A model generated the notes under the pieces. It made no database searches, was not told where the DNA came from, and saw only the letters and a list, made by a program, of their open reading frames with translations. Below are positions 3,697 through 59,207 of a stretch of DNA of 64,000 nucleotides, one piece after another (position 1 is the stretch's first letter; each line of letters begins with the position of its first letter). The translations under genes were made by a program, and so were the position numbers. The stretch is from an uncultured Gammaproteobacteria bacterium (GTDB taxonomy: Bacteria; Patescibacteriota; Patescibacteriia; UBA2196): NCBI GenBank assembly GCA_964435065.1, contig CAYSXS010000001.1:20538-84537 (forward strand), in the 5' to 3' direction.

Positions 3697-4879
3697 AGAT
3701 AAAAAAATATTTATAGCAGCAGACATATTCCCTCCAACATCAGGTGGCCCAGCCACTTATTCTTTAAATTTAGCTAAAAGTTTACACAAAAAAGGATATA
3801 CAGTTAGGGTTTTAACTTATGGGCATTTACACCAAAGAAAACCAAAAGTAGATTTTAAAATAACTAAAGTTAGTTCGCGCTGGCCTTTGCTTTTGAGGTA
3901 TCTTTTCTACTTCATACATTTGTTTATTCGATCATATAACTATGATGTAATTTATGCTCAAGGACCAGTAGCATCTGGTTGGCCAAGCCTTTTCGTTTCT
4001 AGACTTACAGCAAAGAGGTTAATTGTTAAAGTTGTTGGTGATTATGCTTGGGAACAAGCTAGATTAACACACAAAACCGAACAAGGGATTGAAGAATGGC
4101 AAATAAAGCCAGAATATAAGGAAAAAATAATTGGAAAATCTAGATTACTTATTAAAGCAGAGAAAGCTGTTGTTAAAGCTGCTGATAAAGTTATTGTTCC
4201 TTCTCATTATTTAAAAAAGATAGTAACTGGTTGGGGAGCAAAAGAAGGACAGGTGGAGGTTATATATAACAGCATATCGTTACCAGAAGCTGTAGATATT
4301 TCTAAAGGTGAAGTAAAGAAAAAAATAGGAATTTCTGGGAATATTTTAGTTTCAGTTAGTCGTCTAGTCCCCTGGAAAGGTTTTGAGTTTTTAATCAAAC
4401 TCATGCCTGACTTGTTGAAAATAAATCCAGAATTTAAATTAATCATTGTTGGTGATGGACCAGAATTAAAAAAATATCAAACAATCGTTCAAGATTTAAA
4501 CTTAGTTGAAAAAGTTTTTTTACCTGGTCGTATGTCACAAGAAAAACTTTTATTGTATTTCAAGGCAGCAGATATGTTTTTACTAAATACTGAATATGAA
4601 GGTTTGTCACATTTAATACTAGAGGCTATGTTCTGCAATGTCCCAGTTATTGTTTCAAATAGAGGTGGTAATCCTGAAATTATTGATCATGAAATTAATG
4701 GTTTGCTGGTTGAATATAGCAACAAAGAAGGATGGTTAAAAGCTATTACTAGAATTTGGGAAGATGAGGATAATAAGCTAAGAAAAAGGCTTACAGAACA
4801 TCCAACACCAAAACTTCCATGTTTTAACTTTGATGAATTAGTTAAAAGAACTTTAGAGGTTCTTTTAGAAGAAGATTAA
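3689..4879 (+). CDS. Glycosyltransferase family 4
   Basis: Motif MFLLNTEYEGLSHLILEAMFCNVPVIVSNRGGNPEII. Confidence 0.8.
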   Translation: MNKDKKIFIAADIFPPTSGGPATYSLNLAKSLHKKGYTVRVLTYGHLHQRKPKVDFKITKVSSRWPLLLRYLFYFIHLFIRSYNYDVIYAQGPVASGWPSLFVSRLTAKRLIVKVVGDYAWEQARLTHKTEQGIEEWQIKPEYKEKIIGKSRLLIKAEKAVVKAADKVIVPSHYLKKIVTGWGAKEGQVEVIYNSISLPEAVDISKGEVKKKIGISGNILVSVSRLVPWKGFEFLIKLMPDLLKINPEFKLIIVGDGPELKKYQTIVQDLNLVEKVFLPGRMSQEKLLLYFKAADMFLLNTEYEGLSHLILEAMFCNVPVIVSNRGGNPEIIDHEINGLLVEYSNKEGWLKAITRIWEDEDNKLRKRLTEHPTPKLPCFNFDELVKRTLEVLLEED

Positions 4880-4884
4880 TATAT

Positions 4885-6015
4885 ATGAAAGTATTAATGT
4901 TTTCAATGGATAAGACTTTGCTTGGTGCTACCAAAAGTGGCGGTGATGCAGTTAGACGCCATAAGGTTTATAGTGAGTTTTGTGATGAATTAAATATTGT
5001 TGTTTTTTGTAAAAAAGGATTTAAAAAACAGCAGTTGTCTAAGAATGTTTTTGTCTGGCCAACCAATTCATTAACTCGATGGGGGTTCTTTTTCAGTGGA
5101 TATATGATTGGTAAAGGAATATACAAGAATTCACCTTTTAATTTAGTAATAGGGGATATATTTACTGCTCTACCTGCCTGGTTTCTAAAAGTAAGGTTTA
5201 AAGTAAAGTTTTTAATGCATTTTCATGGAGATTTTTGGGGAAACAAAGATGCTTTAGAAAAAAAATGGCACAATTATTTTCTTTTGATATTTAGTAAATT
5301 TTTATCTCGTAGAGCTAATGCTGTTAGAGTTGTTTCAAAAAGGATAAAAGAAAAATTAGTTAAAGAAGGTATTAAAAAAGATAAGGTTTATGTTATTTCA
5401 ACTCCTGCAGATTTAAGTAAGTTTTTAACTTTTGATCAAACACGTGTGTATGAGTTAAAACAGAAATATCCAAATAAAAATATATTGTTTGTTGGAAGAC
5501 TTGAAACTGTAAAGAACTTAGATTGGTTTTTAGAAGTATTTAAAGAAATTAAGAAAGGATATACAGATGTTAGGTTTTTAATTGCAGGTGAGGGAAGTGA
5601 AAAAATAAATTTAGAATTAAAAGTAAAAGAATTAAAATTAGAGGATAGTGTGAAATTTTTGGGTAAAGTAGATTATGATAACCTAACAAACTATTATCAA
5701 TTAGCCGATATATTTGTTTTACCATCATTATCTGAAAGTTTTGGTAGGGTTTTAGTAGAGGCAGGAGCTAGTGGTACACCTTGTGTTGCTAATGCAACTA
5801 CAGGAGCTAAAGACGTTATTAAAGACAAAGAAACAGGCTTCTTAGTGTCGATTAACAACCAAAAACAAACGATAGATAAAGTAATAACTCTATTAAAAGA
5901 TAGTAAATTAGGTGTAAAGATGGGGAACAAAGCACAAGAGTTTGTAAAAGAAAACTTTGATGGCGATATACAAACAAAGAAGATAATTAGATTGTGGCAA
6001 GATTTAATATTTTAA
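4885..6015 (+). CDS. Glycosyltransferase family 4
   Basis: Motif FVLPSLSESFGRVLVEAGASGTPCVANATTGAKDVI. Confidence 0.8.
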   Translation: MKVLMFSMDKTLLGATKSGGDAVRRHKVYSEFCDELNIVVFCKKGFKKQQLSKNVFVWPTNSLTRWGFFFSGYMIGKGIYKNSPFNLVIGDIFTALPAWFLKVRFKVKFLMHFHGDFWGNKDALEKKWHNYFLLIFSKFLSRRANAVRVVSKRIKEKLVKEGIKKDKVYVISTPADLSKFLTFDQTRVYELKQKYPNKNILFVGRLETVKNLDWFLEVFKEIKKGYTDVRFLIAGEGSEKINLELKVKELKLEDSVKFLGKVDYDNLTNYYQLADIFVLPSLSESFGRVLVEAGASGTPCVANATTGAKDVIKDKETGFLVSINNQKQTIDKVITLLKDSKLGVKMGNKAQEFVKENFDGDIQTKKIIRLWQDLIF

Positions 6016-6077: not shown

Positions 6078-6950
6078 TTATTGATTATTTTGCTTTCTTG
6101 ACGAGTTTTTTATTTGGTTTAGTTCTTCTATTCCTTCTGCACGTGTTTTTCTAATTTGGGCGCGTACTTCAACATTATCTTTGATAAGTTCTTTCTTTTT
6201 ATCTTGTATGTCTTGCCAAAGTTCTTTATTTTCTGTCTTTATTTCGTTTAGCTTGTTTTGTATTTCTTCTCCAACTTCTGGTGTAGCGTCTTGCAACTCT
6301 TCAACAAAATTGTATTGTATCGCTCTTCTTACTGCATTTGATGTTCTATTTTGTATAGTGTTTTTTAATCGTTCAGCAAACTGCTCTTTATTTTCTAATT
6401 TCATCATTGTTTGGCTAAACTGTTGTAAGTGTGTTTCGCGTTGGGTACGTATTTTTTCCATTGCCCGTTCAGGAACTTGAGTTTCAAGTTTTTGCATTAT
6501 TTCTTGATGTTTTAATAGATGATCTGAGTATTTATCTAAAAATTTATTTAACTTTTCTGCATCAGGGTTATTTTCTTTAGCCTGCATAACTCTACTATTA
6601 ACTTTTTCCATTAAATCATCATATTTATTGCTTACTTTTTCTAGTAGTTTTTCAGCTTTTTCATCATCTGGGTTTTCATCTAAATATTTTTGGATTTTTA
6701 ATAACTGAGAACTGGCTTGTTGTAATTGTAATTCAGATTTTTTAATTGGATTTTTTGTAACAAATATTTTTACATTTCTCCAAGCATTGTGAAACCAAGA
6801 AGTTCCTCCAATATCTAAATCTTCTTCAGTGACCTCTAGTGTGGTTTCTTCTGGTTCGTCTACAGTTTCTGTTGTTTCTGCGGATACAGTTGCAGAGAAA
6901 CAAAAAACCATAGCAAATATGGTTGTCATTAAAATTGTTTTTTTGAGCAT
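6078..6950 (-). CDS. Secreted alpha-helical / coiled-coil protein of unknown function
   Basis: N-terminal signal peptide MLKKTILMTTIFAMVFCFSATVSA, followed by a long charged, heptad-like sequence. Confidence 0.5.
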   Translation of the reverse strand: MLKKTILMTTIFAMVFCFSATVSAETTETVDEPEETTLEVTEEDLDIGGTSWFHNAWRNVKIFVTKNPIKKSELQLQQASSQLLKIQKYLDENPDDEKAEKLLEKVSNKYDDLMEKVNSRVMQAKENNPDAEKLNKFLDKYSDHLLKHQEIMQKLETQVPERAMEKIRTQRETHLQQFSQTMMKLENKEQFAERLKNTIQNRTSNAVRRAIQYNFVEELQDATPEVGEEIQNKLNEIKTENKELWQDIQDKKKELIKDNVEVRAQIRKTRAEGIEELNQIKNSSRKQNNQ

Positions 6951-7050
6951 AGATTTTGTTTAATTTATATATTTTTATTATATCATGTATTCAGTATATT
7001 TCCGATAATGTAACCGTATATATGGTGTTAGGTGACAGTTGGGCTATTTT

Positions 7051-7548
7051 TTAGTCCATAAACTGGAAAGAATCTACTAAGTATTGAAAAATATCATCAT
7101 CATTTTGAGATTGTATGCTATAGATATTATCATCTTTTTCAATATTAATTAGATATACATCATCATTTAACATGTTACTAAAATAAGATTGTTTTTCGGC
7201 AGAATAATTATCTACGGTCATGTTTTTAATATTTTTATATTCTATTGCTATGGCTTCTATTTTTTTATGGTACACATCTTTATTGGTAATACTTATAGAA
7301 AGTAATGGTGGTGGCATAATGCCTTTGTTTGTGAATATCGTTTTATTAATAAACCAAGTATCACTTCCCTCAATTTTCGTGACATTCCATTCTTTTGGAT
7401 AGTCAAATTTAAACCTATACGGATTATTTTGGTAAGTCTGCCAGTTTTTAGTTTGATTGTTCTGTGTAGTAACTGAAGATTGTTGCCACCACCAAAAACC
7501 ACCACCAATAATAACAATTACAATAATTAAAATGATTATTTTTCTCAT
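7051..7548 (-). CDS. Membrane-anchored hypothetical protein
   Basis: A single N-terminal TM helix (IIILIIVIVIIGGGFWWW) followed by an extracytoplasmic domain. Confidence 0.45.
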   Translation of the reverse strand: MRKIIILIIVIVIIGGGFWWWQQSSVTTQNNQTKNWQTYQNNPYRFKFDYPKEWNVTKIEGSDTWFINKTIFTNKGIMPPPLLSISITNKDVYHKKIEAIAIEYKNIKNMTVDNYSAEKQSYFSNMLNDDVYLINIEKDDNIYSIQSQNDDDIFQYLVDSFQFMD

Positions 7549-7589
7549 ATTGTTAAATTAGTAATAAAAATTAGCACAATTTTGCTAAT

Positions 7590-7794
7590 GTATGTGTGCA
7601 TCTGAAGTTTGGCACTAATTTTCCTATATTAAAAGTAGTAGCTCTCAATAAATGAAAAAGGATATATCTAACACCAAAACTCCACCCAAACCCCACAAAA
7701 ATTAGTGGGGGACTTGGGTGGAAGAGAATGGACACTCCTTAAGGATTTAATTAATGTCGATTCTCTGTAGCCAGATATACGGTGTTATACGACG
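7590..7794 (+). repeat. Copy A of a repeated non-coding element family. It has the 5' box GTATGTGTGCATCTGAAGTTT and the 3' box CCAGATATACGGTGTTATACGACG.
   Basis: Homologous copies lie at 45820-45932 and 46905-47022. Internally it carries a strong GC hairpin (7681-7720: CCACCCAAACCCCAC-aaaaatta-GTGGGGGACTTGGGTGG). Confidence 0.6.
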
Positions 7795-7835
7795 TAATCT
7801 AAAAGCCGATTCATTATAAATTTTGGTAATTTATT
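7781..7835. repeat. Left arm of a ~55-bp imperfect inverted repeat; its partner is at 8056-8116
   Basis: GGTGTTATACGACGTAATCTAAAAGCC...ATAAATTTTGGTAATTTATT compared with the reverse complement of 8056-8116, GGCGTTATACGACATAATAAAAAGCC...AATAATTTTGGTAATTTATT. The matching core AATTTTGGTAATTTATT is 17 bp. Confidence 0.6.
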
Positions 7836-7836
7836 T

Positions 7837-7995
7837 ATTTTGATCCCTTAGTATTTCCAACACTTTTTCTGGTGGATTGCCGTACCCTTCGCCAGTGTAT
7901 TTATCTGCAACAGCTTTTAGTTCCGGCTTGGAAGCGATAAGATCATTTATTGTATTTTGAGGCGATATTTCGCCTGCGTTTTCTTTCTCCATAAA
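7837..7995 (-). CDS. Possible small ORF (53 aa) between the inverted-repeat arms. This may be non-coding.
   Basis: MEKENAGEISPQNTINDLIASKPELKAVADKYTGEGYGNPPEKVLEILRDQNK. It is GC-richer than its surroundings and has no recognisable family. Confidence 0.2.
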
Positions 7996-8055
7996 ATTTT
8001 TGCGTTATTAATTAATGTTAAAATATATAGAATTATCTTTATACGTCGACCCGAC

Positions 8056-8116
8056 AATAAATTACCAAAATTATTAATAAAATATATAGAGGCTTTTTAT
8101 TATGTCGTATAACGCC
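8056..8116. repeat. Right arm of the ~55-bp imperfect inverted repeat. It overlaps the start of GC-rich element copy 1.
   Basis: See 7781-7835. Confidence 0.6.
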
Positions 8117-8366
8117 GACGGATAGGCGAAGCCTAACGAAGGACTTTCCGCAGGATGTAAGCCGAAGGCTTACAGACTAAGGAAAGGACTGAGTTAGGTT
8201 TGGGCCGAGCAGGGTGAGTGCAGGATCTGGGCGAGCCGCTTATCCGTTGTTGTCAGAAGAATCGTGAGCCTCTAGAAGGCCCAAGCCTATCCGTCGGCGT
8301 TGTCAAAAATTGAGGAGCAAGACTGGAACGAAGTGGAAGGCGAGCGAACGATATTTTTGACAACTC
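8104..8366 (+). repeat. GC-rich 261-bp structured element, copy 1. Candidate structured ncRNA or recombination site.
   Basis: Identical except for one mismatch (260/261 positions) to 47546-47808. It contains a nested perfect 16-bp inverted repeat, ACGCCGACGGATAGGC (8112-8127) pairing with GCCTATCCGTCGGCGT (8285-8300). Internal helices include GTAAGCC-gaa-GGCTTAC and TTGGGCC...GGCCCAA. A second 12-bp stem joins GTTGTCAAAAAT (8299-8310) with ATTTTTGACAAC (8353-8364). Confidence 0.85.
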
Positions 8367-8536
8367 GTTATTATCTGGCCTTTTTGAATATAATATACAA
8401 TATTTTGTATGTTATATGAATATTTGATATAAATCAGTTTTTGTTTATAATTTCATCTTAATTCTAGCTAAAATATGACCTTTATGCAAATAAAGTGCCA
8501 TTTACTAGAACGAAGAAATAGTATAAGATTAAGTAT

Positions 8537-40465: not shown

Positions 40466-42682
40466 ATGTTTAATATACAAAACAAATTAATATATTCCAT
40501 AATAATTTTCTTGTTAGTGTTTTTGCCTTTAGGAATAAAGACTGAGGCAAAAGAACAAGAACTTCCTGCTCATCAAGCAGGAGAGCTTCTAGTTAAATTA
40601 AAAACTAGTGAAAAGATTTTTAAATTTAAATTTAGTTCAGATATTGAATTACAAGAATTAATGGATATATATAATTCTCAAGACAGTGTTGAGTATGCAG
40701 AACCAAACTATATCTATCGCGCTAGTTTAGAACCAAAAGATACTTTTTACACTCAACAATTGTATTTATCAAAAATTAAAGCAAATCGTGCTTGGGACAT
40801 TACAACTGGTTCCAGAAGGGTTACAATAGCAATTGTAGATTCTGGTGTTGATTTAGATCATCCAGATTTAAGACAAAATATTTGGTTTAACAATAAAGAA
40901 ACAGTTAATAATAATATAGATGATGATAGGAATGGATATATAGATGATATATATGGTTGGGATTTTGTTGGAGATGATAATGACCCAAATCCTGATACAA
41001 GTGTAGAATACAATAAGACAGGAATAAATCATGGTACAGTAATTTCAGGAATTGCTGCTGCTCAAGGGGGAAACAAAGAAGGAATAGCTGGTATAAGTTG
41101 GTCTAGTAAAATTATGGCACTAAGGGTTTTAGATAGCGAGGGTTATGGAACAACAGACAAGGTTGCTAAAGCTATTGATTATGCAGTTAATAATAAAGCT
41201 GATGTTATAAACCTAAGCTTCGTTGGTACTGGTAAAAGTTTAACTTTAGAAAGAGCAATTAAACGAGCGTATGATGCAGGAGTAATAGTAGTAGCAGCTG
41301 CCGGTAATGAAGTCGCTTCTGGTGTAGATATGGGCAAAGAAGAGAATAAACAATATCCTGTTTGTCATGATGGGCCAAATAGTGAGAATTGGGTGATTGG
41401 AGTAGCTTCAATAGATAATGATGATCATTTAGCTAGCTTTTCAAATTATGGTTCAAGTTGTATTGATTTAGTTACCCCTGGTGTACGTTTGTTTAGTACT
41501 GTGTATCACGATGAATCTAATAGTGATTTCAAAGACTATTATCAACACGGTTGGACAGGTACTTCTGTTTCTGCACCACAAGTAGCAGGAGCGTTTGCTT
41601 TAGTAAAATCATACAAGCCATCTTTTTCTGCTCAACAGATTAAAGATTTGTTTTTAAATAATGCGATAGATATAGATAGCAAGAATCCAACATATAGGAA
41701 TAAGTTAGGTAGTGGTTTAATGAATGTTTATGCAACCATTTCTAAAGCTTTAGGTGAACAACCAGAAGAAGCAGTTAAAAAAGAATTAGTTATCACAGCT
41801 GCTGGACAAGGTGGTGGGCCACATGTAAAAGCTTTTAGAAAAAACTATCTAGAAAATGAATTTTTTGCTTTTGATGCATACTATAGAGGAGGGCTTTCTG
41901 TTGCTTCAGGAGATTTAGATAGAGATGGGGATATAGAGGTTGTGGTTGGTTTGGGAGCAGGAACACATCCATGGTTTAAGATTTTTTCTGAAGAAGGTGA
42001 ATTACAAAGTCAATTCATGGCTTACGGAGAAGGTTTTCGTGGTGGAGTAGAAGTTGCCATAGGTGATGTTGATGGAGATGGTATAAAAGAGATAATTACA
42101 GGGGCTGGTCCTGGAGGAGGTCCACACATTAGAATTTTTTCACATAATGGAGCGTTAAAAAATCATTTCTTTGCTTTTGATAGAAATTTTACAGGTGGAG
42201 TAGAATTAGCAAGCGGAGATGTTAATGGGGATGGTAAAGATGAAATTATTGTAGTTCCAAAATCAAATCGTGAATCAAAGGTTAAAGTATTTAATTTAAA
42301 AGGGGAGTTAATTAGTGAATTTTTAGCTTTTGATTTAGGGGTTAAGAATGGAATACATGTTGCAGCAGGAGATTTAGATAATGACGGAAAAGATGAAATA
42401 ATTATTGGAGCAGGTTATGGCAATAGTCCACAGATAAAAACTTTTGATTTAAATGGTAATAATATAACTGAATTCACATCTTATCACCCTAATTTCCGTG
42501 GTGGTGTGTATGTTGCATCTGGAGATACTGATTCGGATGGGTTTGATGAGATAATAGCAGGTGCTGGTAAAACAGGAGGTCCTCATGTAAGGGTATTTAA
42601 CAAAAATGGGGGATTAGAATTTCATTTCTTTGCGTATAACGAGAACTTTAGAGGTGGAGTTCGTGTGTCTTCAAGTAACTAA
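40466..42682 (+). CDS. Secreted subtilisin-like serine protease (S8) fused to a C-terminal FG-GAP-type repeat beta-propeller
   Basis: Signal peptide present. Catalytic triad motifs AIVDSGVD (Asp), HGTVISGIAAA (His) and GTSVSAPQVAGAFAL (Ser). These are followed by ~7 repeats of ...GGGPHVKAF...FFAFD..FRGGV.VA.GD.DGDG.DEII... Confidence 0.8.
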   Translation: MFNIQNKLIYSIIIFLLVFLPLGIKTEAKEQELPAHQAGELLVKLKTSEKIFKFKFSSDIELQELMDIYNSQDSVEYAEPNYIYRASLEPKDTFYTQQLYLSKIKANRAWDITTGSRRVTIAIVDSGVDLDHPDLRQNIWFNNKETVNNNIDDDRNGYIDDIYGWDFVGDDNDPNPDTSVEYNKTGINHGTVISGIAAAQGGNKEGIAGISWSSKIMALRVLDSEGYGTTDKVAKAIDYAVNNKADVINLSFVGTGKSLTLERAIKRAYDAGVIVVAAAGNEVASGVDMGKEENKQYPVCHDGPNSENWVIGVASIDNDDHLASFSNYGSSCIDLVTPGVRLFSTVYHDESNSDFKDYYQHGWTGTSVSAPQVAGAFALVKSYKPSFSAQQIKDLFLNNAIDIDSKNPTYRNKLGSGLMNVYATISKALGEQPEEAVKKELVITAAGQGGGPHVKAFRKNYLENEFFAFDAYYRGGLSVASGDLDRDGDIEVVVGLGAGTHPWFKIFSEEGELQSQFMAYGEGFRGGVEVAIGDVDGDGIKEIITGAGPGGGPHIRIFSHNGALKNHFFAFDRNFTGGVELASGDVNGDGKDEIIVVPKSNRESKVKVFNLKGELISEFLAFDLGVKNGIHVAAGDLDNDGKDEIIIGAGYGNSPQIKTFDLNGNNITEFTSYHPNFRGGVYVASGDTDSDGFDEIIAGAGKTGGPHVRVFNKNGGLEFHFFAYNENFRGGVRVSSSN

Positions 42683-45780: not shown

Positions 45781-45819
45781 GGTGATATTTAATCAGTTTT
45801 AAAATATTTTTTGAATAAC

Positions 45820-45932
45820 GTATGTCTGTATCTGAAGTTTTTTGCTTTCTTCATTACTATCGAAAGCAAAATTAGTAATTTAAGCGAAGGGCGAGCCGAG
45901 CCCTTAAGCCAGATACACGCCGTTAAGCGACC
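45820..45932 (+). repeat. Copy B of the repeated non-coding element family (5' box GTATGTCTGTATCTGAAGTTT; 3' box CCAGATACACGCCGTTAAGCGACC)
   Basis: Homologous to 7590-7794 and 46905-47022. Internal hairpins are TTTTGCTTTC...GAAAGCAAAA and AAGGGC-gagccga-GCCCTT. Confidence 0.6.
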
Positions 45933-46091
45933 CCAACGGAATGAAATGGAGTGAGAGCACAGCGTGGCCCGAGTTCAAAAAATATTTTTCGTCTTTATTC
46001 ATCAGATAGTCTTTCGTATATTTCTTATAAATTTGATTTTTTCGTTTTGAAAAATGAAAGAGGGGTTAGCGGTGAATTTCATTTTTTAGAA

Positions 46092-46655
46092 TTAATAATA
46101 TTTCTCTATTCCTCCAAAACCTATTAGTTTGTTTTCTCTTGTTTTGTTGATGAAGTTTTTTAGCCTTTTTTTGAATTCTTCTGGATGCTTTTGTACTCTA
46201 TGAATATAGGCAATACGAATTCTTTTGTATGTATCAGAAAATGTATTGTAATTTTTCCATGCGATTTTATCCTCCTTTACAGCATCAATGATGTCTTTTG
46301 GAAAAACAAACTTTTCTGAGGCAATTTTCTTTGCTTTGTCCAATATTAGGGGATGAATCATGTCATGTTTTAAAAGCCATTTTATTCTTTCTTTGTTTTG
46401 CTGAGAATAAGTGCTTTTGGGATTTCTTGGAGAAAAACGTTGAACACTACTCTCTTCATCAAAAGATTTAATCGTGCTATCGATCCAACCAAAACATAAT
46501 GACTCCTCTACGGCATCGTTGTATACAATTCTTATTTTACCTGAAGATTTTTTCGGATACATCAACCAGACATCTTTTTCTTTATCAAAATTCTTTTCCA
46601 GCCATTTACGCCAGTCTTTCCTATTTGTCACATAGAGTGTTTTTTCTATATTCAT
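46092..46655 (-). CDS. YdeI/OmpD-associated family protein (bacteriocin-protection-like, DUF1801-related)
   Basis: ...DVWLMYPKKSSGKIRIVYNDAVEESLCFGWIDSTIKSFDEESSVQRFSPRNPKSTYSQQNKERIKWL... Confidence 0.6.
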   Translation of the reverse strand: MNIEKTLYVTNRKDWRKWLEKNFDKEKDVWLMYPKKSSGKIRIVYNDAVEESLCFGWIDSTIKSFDEESSVQRFSPRNPKSTYSQQNKERIKWLLKHDMIHPLILDKAKKIASEKFVFPKDIIDAVKEDKIAWKNYNTFSDTYKRIRIAYIHRVQKHPEEFKKRLKNFINKTRENKLIGFGGIEKYY

Positions 46656-46699
46656 TTTATTTATTATAAATTAATGAATGATAATTTTAAATATTTTCA

Positions 46700-46924
46700 T
46701 GATCCATTTATTTGAGTCGCAAAATTATTTAAAATCTGTGCTAACTCAACAGGTTTACCAAGCATGGGAAAATGCCTAGAATCGATATCATTTTTTTTGA
46801 CTTGAAGATTCTTAATCATATTATCCTGAATTTTCTCACTAAATGCCTTATTTTTTTTCAGGCGAATATATAGGGAATTAACAGGGATGTCTTTTGTGTT
46901 TAATGTATGCGTACATCTGAAGTT
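46700..46924 (-). pseudogene. C-terminal fragment of an alpha/beta-hydrolase fold gene whose 5' part is missing
   Basis: The minus-strand translation ...DIPVNSLYIRLKKNKAFSEKIQDNMIKNLQVKKNDIDSRHFPMLGKPVELAQILNNFATQINGS* carries the catalytic-His 'HFPML' C-terminal signature of alpha/beta hydrolases. The frame is open to ~46924 and then terminates exactly inside repeat copy C. No start or N-terminal domain is present. Confidence 0.5.
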
Positions 46925-47022
46925 TCAGCTCCTTCTTTGTAGCTTATCAATATATTAACAGATAAAAAAGATACAAAGAAGGAGCTGAAATTTGGATGAA
47001 CATTTGGCGTAGTTGTACGAAG
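46905..47022 (+). repeat. Copy C of the repeated non-coding element family (5' box GTATGCGTACATCTGAAGTTT; 3' box CATTTGGCGTAGTTGTACGAAG)
   Basis: Perfect 17-bp hairpin TCAGCTCCTTCTTTGTA...TACAAAGAAGGAGCTGA. It abuts the truncated hydrolase gene. Confidence 0.6.
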
Positions 47023-47195
47023 TTCTGTTTTTTAGCTACGACTGCAAGGAGTAGCTATTTGGGCGATAAGCCCAAATAAAGAAATATTTTTTGTTATTTT
47101 TAGCTTATTGACTTATATTTTTACCTATGCTTATATTATGTAATAAAGACTAAACCAATAATTAAAATTTTACAAATAAGGTAGGAGAAATAGTT

Positions 47196-47441
47196 ATGAA
47201 AGATTTAATTAACTTTGGAGACAAGCTTCCTAGGGTCGGTCAGATTATCAATTTGTTTCGTCCTCCCGGAGCTTCCATAGTTTCATGTGAAGATACGAAG
47301 GGTTGTAGCAGTGAAAAGAGATGGGAAGTTGACAATCTTGTTGCGGATGGAGATTTTTGGTTTCGTTGCACAAAATGTAACAGATTAATCTCTCTTCATG
47401 CTAACGTGAAAGAAAAATATAATTGGAAATCGTGTGATTAA
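47196..47441 (+). CDS. Small (81 aa) Cys-rich, zinc-ribbon-like protein of unknown function
   Basis: Strong RBS AGGAGA 8 nt upstream. It has a C-x5-C ... C-x2-C arrangement (SCEDTKGC / CTKC) and is GC-richer than the surrounding genes. Confidence 0.5.
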   Translation: MKDLINFGDKLPRVGQIINLFRPPGASIVSCEDTKGCSSEKRWEVDNLVADGDFWFRCTKCNRLISLHANVKEKYNWKSCD

Positions 47442-47545
47442 GCGACACGAAGAAATAAACTTGTATCATGGCCCAGCAAGTATAAAATATGGGTCTTTTT
47501 CATTTGCCAGAAAAATAACAAAAAATATTTCTTAAAAAATGGAAT

Positions 47546-47808
47546 TTCGTACAACGCCGACGGATAGGCGAAGCCTAACGAAGGACTTTCCGCAGGATGT
47601 AAGCCGAAGGCTTACAGACTAAGGAAAGGACTGAGTTAGGTTTGGGCCGAGCAGGGTGAGTGCAGGATCTGGGCGAGCCGCTTATCCGTTGTTGTCAGAA
47701 GAATCGTGAGCCTCTAGAAGGCCCAAGCCTATCCGTCGGCGTTGTCAAAAATTGAGGAGCAAGACTGGAACGAAGTGGAAGGCGAGCGAACGATATTTTT
47801 GACAACTG
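47546..47808 (+). repeat. GC-rich 261-bp structured element, copy 2
   Basis: 260/261 nt identical to 8104-8366, with the same orientation and the same nested inverted repeats. It ends 108 bp upstream of the tyrosine recombinase gene. Confidence 0.85.
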
Positions 47809-47915
47809 GTTTATATATGAAAACAATTCGTATAATGACCTTTATTTGTACTGTATACGAATGTATCGTATAATTAATCTATATATAATTTTATTATAAT
47901 CTTTTTTTAAAAAAT

Positions 47916-48749
47916 ATGCAATTTGATTTTGAAAAATATTTAAATAAAACCAAAGACGAGTTAAGGTTAAGAAATTATAGTCAAAAGACCATAAAAAGCT
48001 ATTCAGGTTGTTTGAAAGATTATTTTAATTTTTTAAATACTAATAAGGGTATTGTTGACTTAAAATCAGTTGAAAAAGTAAAAAAATTTTTATTGAATAA
48101 ACAGAACAAGGGCAATTCAGGACAAACTATAAATTTATATTTAAATGCTATTAAATTTTTTTATAGAGATATTCTGAAGAATAATGAAAAAATAGATTTG
48201 AAGTTTTCTAAAACAAGTAAAAAATTGCCGGTGGTTTTATCACATAGTGAAATTGAAAAAATATTAAGTCATATTAGGAATGGTAAGCATAAATTAATGA
48301 TTTCTTTGGTTTATGGTGCTGGCTTAAGGATAAGTGAGGTAATTAATTTAAAAGTCCAAGATGTTGATCTAAATGAATTAACAATTCATTTAAAACAAGC
48401 AAAAGGCAAAAAAGATAGAATAACAATTCTATCTCCTAAAATTAAAGAAGAGCTGAATAACTTTTTGATGAACAAGCAGATGAAAGATTTGGTTTTTGAA
48501 AGTGAACGAGGTGGTAAGTTATCTGAAAGAACAGCTCAAAAAGTTTTTGAAAATGGATTAAAATCAGCTAAAATAAATAAACCAGCAACTTTTCATTCTT
48601 TGCGTCATTCATTTGCAACACATTTATTGGAAAATGGGGTAGATGTACGTTATGTGCAAGAACTATTAGGACATGCAAATATTCGTACAACACAGATATA
48701 CACTAAAGTAACTAATCCAAGCTTAAAAAATATTAAAAGTCCATTATGA
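47916..48749 (+). CDS. Tyrosine site-specific recombinase (phage-integrase / XerCD-like family)
   Basis: N-terminal SAM-like core-binding domain. Catalytic motifs are GLRISEVINLKVQDVD (Arg I), HSLRHSFATHLL (HxxR) and GHANIRTTQIYTKV (the Tyr nucleophile). 277 aa. Confidence 0.85.
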   Translation: MQFDFEKYLNKTKDELRLRNYSQKTIKSYSGCLKDYFNFLNTNKGIVDLKSVEKVKKFLLNKQNKGNSGQTINLYLNAIKFFYRDILKNNEKIDLKFSKTSKKLPVVLSHSEIEKILSHIRNGKHKLMISLVYGAGLRISEVINLKVQDVDLNELTIHLKQAKGKKDRITILSPKIKEELNNFLMNKQMKDLVFESERGGKLSERTAQKVFENGLKSAKINKPATFHSLRHSFATHLLENGVDVRYVQELLGHANIRTTQIYTKVTNPSLKNIKSPL

Positions 48750-56837: not shown

Positions 56838-57216
56838 GTCCGGGTAGGTGAGTGATTACCTGTATTTCTTAGGAAATATGGGAGGAAAGTCCGAACACCA
56901 ACCTATTCAATTAGGAATAATAGTTCTGAAATAGAACCAGGTATAAGACTTACGAGAAAAGTAGTTCACGATCGTGTTACTTTTAGTGGACAAAGTCAAA
57001 ACCTCGAGCTAGTGCCACAGAGACTATACTAACCCTTATGGGTGAAATGTGAAAAGTGAACTGATGTTTTTTTAAAGCTACAGTTCTCATCCCTTGGTGA
57101 CAAGGAGATGTGGTAAACCTTATTTTGGTGCAAGTCATAATTGACGCGTAGATAGATGATCACAATTACTGCTTTGCAGTAATACAGAATTCGGCTTATG
57201 ACCCTGCCTGGACAAC
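56838..57216 (+). ncRNA. rnpB: RNase P RNA (bacterial type, ~379 nt)
   Basis: Conserved P4 strands GGAGGAAAGTCCGAACACC (5') and ACAGAATTCGGCTTATG (3', corresponding to ACAGAACCCGGCUUA). P1 closes through GTCCGGGTAGG pairing with CCTGCCTGGAC. The region is GC-richer than its flanks and contains no ORF. Confidence 0.8.
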
Positions 57217-58766: not shown

Positions 58767-59207
58767 ATGAAAAATATAAATTCAAACAATTTAGTGGGCG
58801 CAGAGAAATTAAGAGAGCTTGTAAGGGAAGAATTAAAAAATACTGCAACCAAAGATGATTTAAAGGGTTTTGCAACCAAAGATGATTTAAAGGGTTTTGC
58901 AACCAAAGATGATTTAAAAAACTTTGCTACTAAAGATGATTTTAATAATTTAGCAGATAAAGTTTTAGGATTAGACACAAAAATTGATAATGTTAAGGAA
59001 GATCTACAGGATCAAATGAATGAAAAATTTGATAAAGTTTTAGAAAGCAATGATAAACTTGGAAAAAAGATGGATATCATAATTGCAGAGTCAGCAGCAC
59101 ATTCTAAGTCATATAAAGATAATGAAGAAGAAATAGAAAAACATGAGGAAGTTTTGGATAATCACGAAAATAGAATTAAGGTTTTGGAAATACAACCTGC
59201 AATATAA
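58767..59207 (+). CDS. Coiled-coil protein with 4 tandem 9-aa repeats (ATKDDLKGF)
   Basis: ...NTATKDDLKGFATKDDLKGFATKDDLKNFATKDDFNNLADKVLGL... followed by a charged helical region. A TTGTTA-17-TACAAT promoter-like sequence lies upstream. Confidence 0.5.
   Translation: MKNINSNNLVGAEKLRELVREELKNTATKDDLKGFATKDDLKGFATKDDLKNFATKDDFNNLADKVLGLDTKIDNVKEDLQDQMNEKFDKVLESNDKLGKKMDIIIAESAAHSKSYKDNEEEIEKHEEVLDNHENRIKVLEIQPAI
58845..58952 (+). repeat. 4 tandem copies of a 27-bp repeat (GCAACCAAAGATGATTTAAAGGGTTTT) within the CDS
   Basis: Copies 1-2 are identical, and copies 3-4 are progressively diverged. This also explains the spurious antisense ORF at 58742-58978. Confidence 0.85.

Follow-up and report, generated by a model that had tools for sequence, protein, structure and literature searches.

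In integrons, a double-stranded insertion site (attI) lies directly upstream of the integrase gene, and beside it lies an array of mostly single-gene cassettes, mostly of unknown function, that reads away from the recombinase. The cassettes are co-oriented, with the ORF first and the recombination site (attC) at its 3′ end, and they are excised and inserted as units; ORF-less cassettes also exist. The attC sites are imperfect hairpins of 57-141 nt with R''/R' boxes (RYYYAAC/GTTRRRY), L boxes, extrahelical bases and an unpaired central spacer, and their repeats are noted to break assemblies (PMC9024848). Integron integrases are defined by an additional IntI-specific domain around patch III (PMC9668308). 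In single-recombinase Xer modules (XerS/difSL, XerH/difH, archaeal XerA/dif), the site has two imperfect inverted arms around a centre of 6-8 bp and is a single site at the replication terminus, marked by a switch in GC skew; difSL lies immediately upstream of xerS (PMC1914069). In addition, a 'Cand' subgroup of Xer-related recombinases from candidate phyla has been catalogued (PMC8138268). IMEX elements of the CTX-phi type, with a folded single-stranded attP, form a third comparison (see PMC4246890). In these a folded hairpin that mimics a Xer site recombines with a double-stranded site by a one-sided exchange, and elements accumulate next to the site with the newest closest to it. Finally, the pdif/dif modules of Acinetobacter form 'dif module islands', in which rows of small gene modules are bounded by Xer-type sequences, each module being seen between inverted repeats (PMC12907356).

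The locus described here most resembles an integron-like cassette array beside a Xer-type recombinase, although it does not meet the definition of a canonical integron and no recombination event was observed directly. It lies in a 64-kb stretch of DNA (the window) from a Patescibacterium (CPR), which is AT-rich (29% GC) and rich in glycosyltransferase genes. A first-pass annotation had described a long inverted repeat around a small ORF at each of two loci and had proposed a shufflon or invertible-cassette system. The inverted repeats were confirmed. The proposed interpretation was only partly supported: cassette-like units bounded by recombination-site sequences and associated with a tyrosine recombinase are present, but inversion is not supported.

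Inverted repeats and elements of the two loci

Local alignment of 7780-7835 with the reverse complement of 8056-8117 gives 63 columns, of which 48 are identical (76%), with a score of 50, whereas the best of 500 shuffles scores 30. A repeat search splits the alignment into two blocks, 7780-7803/8094-8117 (24 nt, 83%) and 7810-7835/8056-8081 (26 nt, 88%), and the 17-nt perfect core AATTTTGGTAATTTATT is located at 7819-7835/8056-8072. The repeat flanks 220 bp with a GC content of 35.5%, which hold a 53-codon ORF on the minus strand, and the right arm runs into the first of two GC-rich copies (53% GC), which are 100% identical over 8111-8365 = 47553-47807. At the second locus the inverted pair that had been described exists but was understated. 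Its outer part is 47012-47036 vs 47531-47555 (20 of 25 identical), and a perfect 23-nt repeat lies at 47079-47101 / 47511-47533 (0 of 500 shuffles), the two parts of the left arm being separated by a 42-nt insertion richer in G+C (47037-47078).

The elements of the two loci are as follows; L and R arm denote the two 11-nt halves of the 29-bp site described below.

6998..7038, plus strand: tentative minimal site with L arm ATTTCCGATAA, 19 nt and R arm TTAGGTGACAG (half-site score 11.8), which would make the next gene a cassette; a 15-nt repeat, 7039-7053 / 7565-7579, flanks that gene (0 of 500 shuffles).
7051..7548, minus strand: PsbP-like gene of 165 aa (Pfam PsbP_2 at 24 bits, below the cut-off), a probable cassette lying between the minimal site and site A.
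7578..7795, plus strand: hairpin site A with L arm 7578-7588, structured body and R arm 7785-7795 (TTATACGACGT); DNA fold z = -4.4, 84% identical to positions 6394-6629 of the related locus L105.
7780..7835, no strand: left arm of the inverted repeat, made of the R arm plus its extension, the far end of the 53-aa cassette.
7831..7992, minus strand: 53-aa ORF, the cassette content, an orphan.
8056..8117, no strand: right arm of the inverted repeat, made of the extension plus L arm ATGTCGTATAA (8102-8112), the near end of the 53-aa cassette; conserved in L105 7197-7321.
8113..8364, plus strand: GC-rich element copy 1, an ORF-less cassette, with long hairpin H1 (stem 8111-8127 / 8285-8301), R' arm 8300-8310, 42-nt purine-rich loop and L' arm 8353-8363.
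8353..8381, plus strand: full 29-bp site 1, ATTTTTGACAA-CTCGTTA-TTATCTGGCCT (score 32.3); its flank 8350-8494 is 79% identical to the region upstream of xer in locus L111.
45808..45933, plus strand: hairpin site B with L arm 45808-45818 and R arm 45923-45933 (z = -3.6).
45934..46091, no strand: extension of the R arm of the YdeI/OmdA cassette, including a conserved module of about 115 nt (45972-46086) that is 75-89% identical to L105, L107 and L046.
46092..46819, minus strand: cassette content, a YdeI/OmdA-like gene of 187 aa (46092-46655; Pfam OmdA) and a 40-aa ORF (46697-46819).
46893..47023, plus strand: hairpin site C with L arm 46893-46903 and R arm 47013-47023 (TTGTACGAAGT) (z = -6.6).
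47012..47101, no strand: left repeat arm of the 81-aa cassette, 47012-47036 and 47079-47101, split by the 42-nt insertion.
47196..47441, plus strand: 81-aa ORF, cassette content without a family match, pointing toward the recombinase, unlike most cassette genes.
47511..47555, no strand: right repeat arm of the 81-aa cassette, ending in L arm ATTTCGTACAA (47544-47554).
47555..47806, plus strand: GC-rich element copy 2, identical to copy 1.
47795..47823, plus strand: full 29-bp site 2 (attI-like or dif-like; score 28.6), starting 121 nt upstream of the recombinase start and homologous to the empty site in L105.
47916..48749, plus strand: tyrosine recombinase of 277 aa, XerA-like and IntI-related but without the IntI-specific domain.

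Two trivial origins of the repeats had been named in advance as grounds for rejecting the shufflon reading, and neither applies. The arms are not terminators, since no terminator-like site overlaps them, and they are not low-complexity chance matches, since both are conserved at 78-84% in a related genome. The occurrence of inverted variants had likewise been set as the test of the shufflon, and it was examined on assembled contigs, not on reads. All public contigs encoding exactly the 53-aa protein (10) or the 81-aa protein (8), from at least 8 samples and three assembly pipelines, keep the window's orientation and spacing relative to the neighboring genes. The two ORFs are complete and unrelated, and are not alternative gene ends; the first-pass annotation had already called them not detectably homologous. 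The only hit of the 53-aa ORF among 5.8 billion proteins is itself, and no family was found for it.

In the related genome L105, whose recombinase is 77% identical to that of the window, both arms are conserved but flank an unrelated gene of 180 aa. Window positions 7600-7831 and 7997-8112 match L105 at 84% and 78%, and the similarity stops at the start and stop codons of the ORF, the 53-aa and 180-aa products showing no similarity. Furthermore, one position in the repeat core has changed on both arms together, being TTGGTAATT/AATTACCAA in the window and TTGGCAATT/AATTGCCAA in L105. Significant flanking repeats of 15-80 nt were found around nine of the 10 cassettes tested, which come from the window, L105, L030 (Saccharibacteria), L043, L032 and L046 (Gracilibacteria). 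The YdeI/OmdA cassette has no significant long repeat in this window, and it and the PsbP-like cassette have weak arm matches (5 of 11).

The recombinase and its 29-bp site

The recombinase passes the XerA family model NF040815 (recomb_XerA_Arch) with 237 bits against a cut-off of 220, but not the integron integrase model TIGR02249, with 226.6 bits against a cut-off of 265 and a match in two stretches. Its best solved relative is the Vibrio integron integrase VchIntIA (E = 1e-44), ahead of the archaeal XerA structures 4A8E (E = 5e-41) and 5HXY (E = 7e-39). In the alignment with VchIntIA (2A3V), residues 182-199 stand where IntI has residues 179-239, so that only 17 residues are found where VchIntIA has 60 and about 43 are missing. 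The IntI-specific domain is therefore absent, and membership among canonical integrons was rejected for this reason. Among 8000 candidates scored, 6588 relatives were found at E <= 1e-30. The listed best hits are about 65-79% identical and are labelled Patescibacteria wherever a source names them, and the family corresponds to the 'Cand' subgroup (PMC8138268).

Eighty related loci were retrieved from species-representative genomes (loci and contigs are given by their L numbers). Upstream of the gene in Patescibacteria lies a conserved 29-bp palindromic site, ATTTYSNRYAA-CTCNTTN-TTATRCGAAGT, made of two imperfect inverted 11-nt arms around a 7-nt center, the arms matching in 5-10 of 11 positions. 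A position matrix finds it on the coding strand 65-174 nt upstream of the start in 23 of 34 Patescibacteria loci, of which 12 were not used to build the matrix, and seven of the 11 misses have less than 125 nt of upstream sequence. Shuffled 64-kb windows give 0-3 hits each, and upstream of 47 non-CPR homologues the best score is 9.4 or less. Contigs of about 20 MAGs end within a few hundred bases upstream of the gene, at or next to the site, with L031, L034 and L042 starting at ...ATAAC, inside the site.

The window holds exactly two full sites, at 8353 and 47795, each at the right end of a GC-rich copy and in direct orientation 39,442 bp apart. The outer end of the left arm at the first locus (7785-7795) is an R-type half-site and that of the right arm (8102-8112) an L-type half-site. 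Both rank among the best half-site matches in the window, as do the pair around the 81-aa ORF at 47013 and 47544. However, half-site matches alone are not enriched in the window (39 observed against 38 expected), so that single arms cannot be called without context. Three contigs or contig pairs (L006/L014, L015 and L018) join the flanks of the two GC copies crosswise, which are the junctions expected if the two direct sites recombined, but assembly chimeras across a 255-nt repeat are an equally good explanation. The 39.4-kb segment between the full sites was also considered as one giant cassette; its ends were compared by eye, without a script, and no matching extended repeat was seen, and the crosswise contigs do not decide the matter. 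A metagenome DNA scan with the 22-mer of the right arm gave a single hit, an unrelated terminator (L112).

Structured elements between the genes

Elements A, B and C are strongly structured, and each starts with an L arm ending ...AA|C/T and ends with G|TT plus an R arm. Arrays with the same end boxes occur in the regions upstream of xer in L028, L029, L030, L032, L035, L037, L043, L063, L100, L105 and L046, with up to about six units (L063). To test for a common structure (arm duplex, 5-nt/2-nt asymmetric internal loop, 7-bp inner stem), 23 such sites, including A, B and C, were trimmed only by the conserved AA and TT. In register the structure is 72% paired, against 30-50% when slid, and covariation is 0.303 against 0.131 or less. 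None of 500 shuffles reaches these values, and all seven inner-stem pairs show double changes. The hairpin sites were chosen by eye, which may bias the covariation set. In the arrays the L and R arms around a hairpin body match in only 5-8 of 11 positions, so that the folded site is imperfect there.

All sites point the same way. Across 12 loci, about 33 of 36 cassette genes, by our count, point away from the recombinase with the hairpin body at their 3′ side, the exceptions seen being the 81-aa ORF, a 163-aa ORF in L108 and a 433-aa gene in L029. The YdeI/OmdA gene has homologues 70-93% identical in MAGs of several bacterial and archaeal phyla, and in L116/L117 it keeps its 3′ flank and hairpin body but has different neighbors.

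The GC-rich element sits exactly at AA^C of the recombinase-proximal site. L105, L032, L036 and L028 have an uninterrupted site next to xer, whereas the window (twice), L046, L049 and L052 carry a GC-rich two-hairpin insert immediately after ...AAC. The insert consists of a long stem abutting the L arm, an R' arm, a purine-rich loop and an L' arm that rebuilds the full site. R' and L' are perfectly complementary to each other, apart from one indel in L052, and the genomic L arm differs from them. The two window copies are identical from AA to AACT. A generic search for repeats ending in AAC was too noisy to be of use, but revealed the duplicated GC element of L046, whose two identical copies lie in exactly the order expected from three successive insertions at the proximal site. 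BLASTN and nhmmer found no homologues of the window's element in the 80 related loci, only the architecture being conserved. Rfam searches of the whole window at gathering thresholds and of both loci at E-value thresholds gave only RNase P and chance hairpin matches, and no tRNA or tmRNA was found for the GC-rich element.

Interpretation as a cassette array and alternative explanations

The inverted repeat is most likely the pair of matching ends of one gene cassette in an integron-like array, a reading that is held with moderate confidence. The analysis itself shows the palindromic site just upstream of the conserved XerA/IntI-like recombinase gene throughout Patescibacteria, the run of genes beyond it, mostly pointing away from the recombinase and separated by structured elements of about 90-490 nt (most 104-221), and the covariation of the stem next to the arms. 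It also shows that each gene segment lies between an R arm and an L arm, which match closely (9-11 of 11 in most cassettes) and extend into 15-80-nt inverted repeats, that the same arms flank a different gene in a relative, and that the AA^C position occupied by the GC-rich element is empty in relatives.

The mechanism, in contrast, is inferred. A free cassette would carry one folded site (L extension and L arm, hairpin body, R arm and R extension), with the long repeat forming the base of the hairpin, and the recombinase would exchange strands at AA^C between this folded, attC-like site and the double-stranded, attI-like site next to its gene. The product would be previous L arm, body, R arm, gene, L arm, 7 nt, R0, so that the two halves of the cassette's own stem end up on either side of its gene and the array grows at the recombinase-proximal end. 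The inverted repeats would in this view arise because each site is palindromic, a cassette lying between the right arm of one site and the left arm of the next. This would account for the repeats around the cassettes, the closely matching arms around cassettes and the non-matching arms around hairpin bodies, the shared polarity of the genes and the position of the GC-rich element, which would be an ORF-less cassette and the latest insertion at both full sites. It is the integron/CTX-phi logic of a folded site recombining with a duplex site (PMC4792948, PMC5027507). Whether cassettes are excised and inserted as units is left undecided: gene replacement between conserved arms, filled and empty proximal sites and the YdeI/OmdA cassette in another context speak for it, but no excised circle, empty-slot allele or reshuffled array was seen within one population, all contigs of this population sharing the window's cassettes. 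The two ORFs that point the 'wrong' way, the 81-aa ORF and that in L108, and the weak arm matches of some cassettes also speak against the reading, as does the recombinase itself, which lacks the IntI additional domain and is so conserved and widespread that it may simply be the housekeeping Xer.

Compared with integrons, the cassette array next to the recombinase gene, the insertion site beside the gene, the co-orientation of the cassettes, the ORF-less cassettes and the assembly breaks are shared. The hairpin sites have conserved ...AA|C and G|TT ends, an unpaired asymmetric spacer next to the crossover point and a covarying inner stem, but are larger (88-486 nt) with 11-nt, Xer-like arms; the attC covariance model of IntegronFinder was not applied, and their standing as attC sites is not settled by these data. 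In addition, the crossover lies between an 11-nt arm and the hairpin body, so that the 15-80-bp base of the hairpin is split and flanks the gene, and the insertion site is a regular palindromic Xer-type site. Compared with CTX-phi-type IMEX elements, the units are single genes or ORF-less hairpins, not phages or plasmids, with many kinds per array, and the similarity in exchange and in the accumulation of elements holds on the present reading. In Acinetobacter each boundary is a complete 28-bp XerC/D site and the sites alternate in direction, whereas here the genes are bounded by half-sites with a structured element between the two halves, and both full sites of the window point the same way; membership among pdif modules was rejected because only half-sites bound the genes.

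A wider reading, tentative and somewhat less likely than not, is that Patescibacteria as a whole carry a gene-capture platform that works like an integron, run by a Xer-type recombinase, the closest solved relative of integron integrases, that has not acquired the IntI domain, and pairing a palindromic dif-like site as attI with large folded hairpins as attC. This would be either a living model of the step between Xer/dif and integrons or an independent invention of cassette capture, and also a route for the cross-domain gene flow seen for the YdeI/OmdA cassette. If the cassette reading holds, ultra-small, host-dependent Patescibacteria have a dedicated way to acquire and stockpile accessory genes, the arrays often bordering variable glycosylation gene clusters in the loci studied. 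Furthermore, folded-hairpin recombination would not need the IntI-specific domain, which bears directly on how integron integrases evolved from Xer-like recombinases (PMC4792948). It would also explain why many Patescibacteria MAG contigs break just upstream of this gene, and it gives a testable 29-bp site and a defined crossover point (AA^C) for a recombinase family so far only catalogued (PMC8138268). No description of such a system was found in full-text literature searches, which drew on an incomplete library.

The strongest alternative, although unlikely, is a housekeeping Xer/dif module with parasites. In this case the recombinase would be the only chromosome-dimer resolvase of the cell and the 29-bp site its dif, placed next to the gene as in XerS/difSL (PMC1914069). 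The hairpin elements and the GC-rich element would be small IMEX-like elements that pile up at dif, as the CTX-phi folded attP does, and the genes between them would be passengers or ordinary chromosomal genes and not a dedicated gene-capture system. The XerA assignment, the conservation and wide distribution of the recombinase, the existence of the 'Cand' subgroup, the gene order xer-ftsK-recA in L111 and the site architecture of 11 + 7 + 11 nt directly upstream of the gene agree with this. However, cumulative GC skew rises steadily through both full sites, so that neither lies at a skew switch within the 64-kb window, to which this analysis was confined, and two full sites in direct orientation lie only 39.4 kb apart. 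The units are single genes without replication functions, share an orientation, carry their own folded site, as integron cassettes do, and form arrays. This alternative overlaps the cassette reading in mechanism and differs mainly in purpose.

Less likely still, the hairpin and GC-rich elements may be structured RNAs (terminators, stabilisers or small RNAs), the long repeats pairing the 5′ and 3′ ends of each cassette's mRNA and the conserved boxes being processing or protein-binding signals. The GC-rich element folds better as plus-strand RNA (-113.9 kcal/mol) than as the minus strand (-93.6), with z = -6.6, the inner stems covary, one position of the repeat core changes on both arms together, and promoter-like hexamers lie within the right arm. 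On the other hand, no Rfam family matches, the covariation fits folded DNA equally well, and an RNA role does not explain the filled and empty alleles exactly at AA^C of a palindromic site, the arms shared with that site or the link to the recombinase gene.

Relics of transposons or MITEs with passenger genes, unrelated to the recombinase, are very unlikely. They would fit the 15-80-nt inverted repeats around single genes and the identical GC-rich copies at two places, but no transposase and no target-site duplications were seen, the repeat termini are the arms of the recombinase-proximal site, and every array examined was found upstream of xer (the loci were chosen through that gene) and shares one polarity.

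Finally, inversion of the segment by the recombinase to switch expression is the least likely explanation: although inverted repeats with recombinase half-sites flank small ORFs in opposite orientations, no inverted variant appears in the 18 contigs, the ORFs are unrelated, gene orientation is strongly biased across loci, and each arm holds only one half-site and not a full crossover site.

Sites, elements and boxes around the two GC-element loci

The two identical GC-rich copies are associated with the full 29-bp sites at 8353-8381 and 47795-47823 of the window. Three metagenome contigs (L006/L014, L015 and L018) join the flanks of these copies crosswise. Two of them read 53-aa ORF, GC-rich element, recombinase, and one reads 81-aa ORF, GC-rich element, glycosyltransferase 8537. 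These are the junctions expected if the two direct full sites, which lie 39,442 bp apart, recombined to give a deletion plus a circle or a tandem copy, but they could also be assembly chimeras. A Gracilibacteria relative (L046) carries two identical copies (3990-4238 and 5650-5901) of its own GC-rich two-hairpin element, unrelated in sequence, flanking one hairpin site and one gene and thereby mirroring the arrangement in the window.

The sequence following GC-rich copy 1 (8350-8494) is 79% identical to the region directly upstream of xer in another genome (L111, positions 93-243), where the gene order is xer-ftsK-recA. In the window, a glycosyltransferase gene follows instead. Locus 1 thus looks like a recombinase-proximal region that has lost or swapped its recombinase. 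In addition, a minimal site-like sequence (L arm, 19 nt, R arm) was identified at 6998-7038, between the ORF 6078-6950 and the PsbP-like gene, which suggests that the array at locus 1 extends one cassette further to the left.

A second conserved box, TTGTATRTTATRCGAA, is located at 47855-47870 and at 8399-8414 and was also found upstream of xer in most CPR loci. It lies about 40 nt downstream of the 29-bp site and before the recombinase start, and may be a promoter or an extra half-site, two possibilities which were not distinguished here. Outside Patescibacteria, the only borderline match to the 29-bp site was ATTGCATATAACACTATCATATCGAAAAT, with a score of 9.4, about 145 nt upstream of the recombinase of a Pacearchaeota locus (L056). 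A DPANN archaeon may have a related site.

Cassette gene and module shared between lineages

The YdeI/OmdA-like cassette protein (46092-46655, minus strand) has homologues with 70-93% identity in MAGs labelled Actinomycetia, Planctomycetota, WOR-3, Diapherotrites, Altiarchaeota and Methanomethylovorans (among them the loci L116, L117, L118 and L120), which is an unusually high identity across domains. In L116/L117 it keeps the same 3′ flank and hairpin body.

Furthermore, a conserved non-coding module of about 115 nt (TTCAAAAAATATTTTT ... AAATTTGATTTTTTC ... GAAAGAGGGG) was found at 45972-46086. It also lies at 4133-4309 in the related genome L105, at 4379-4493 in L046 and at 4565-4690 in L116. 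It recurs at cassette ends in either orientation in distant Patescibacteria lineages, and looks like a promoter plus ribosome-binding site.

Further features of the window

The bacterial RNase P RNA (56841-57214) only just passes its Rfam threshold (107 bits, cut-off 100), in line with a divergent CPR lineage. Finally, in-frame 27-nt tandem repeats lie at 58827-58961, and repeats at multiples of 153 nt (41850-42657) lie inside the 738-aa ORF 40466-42682. Both are probably repetitive surface proteins.
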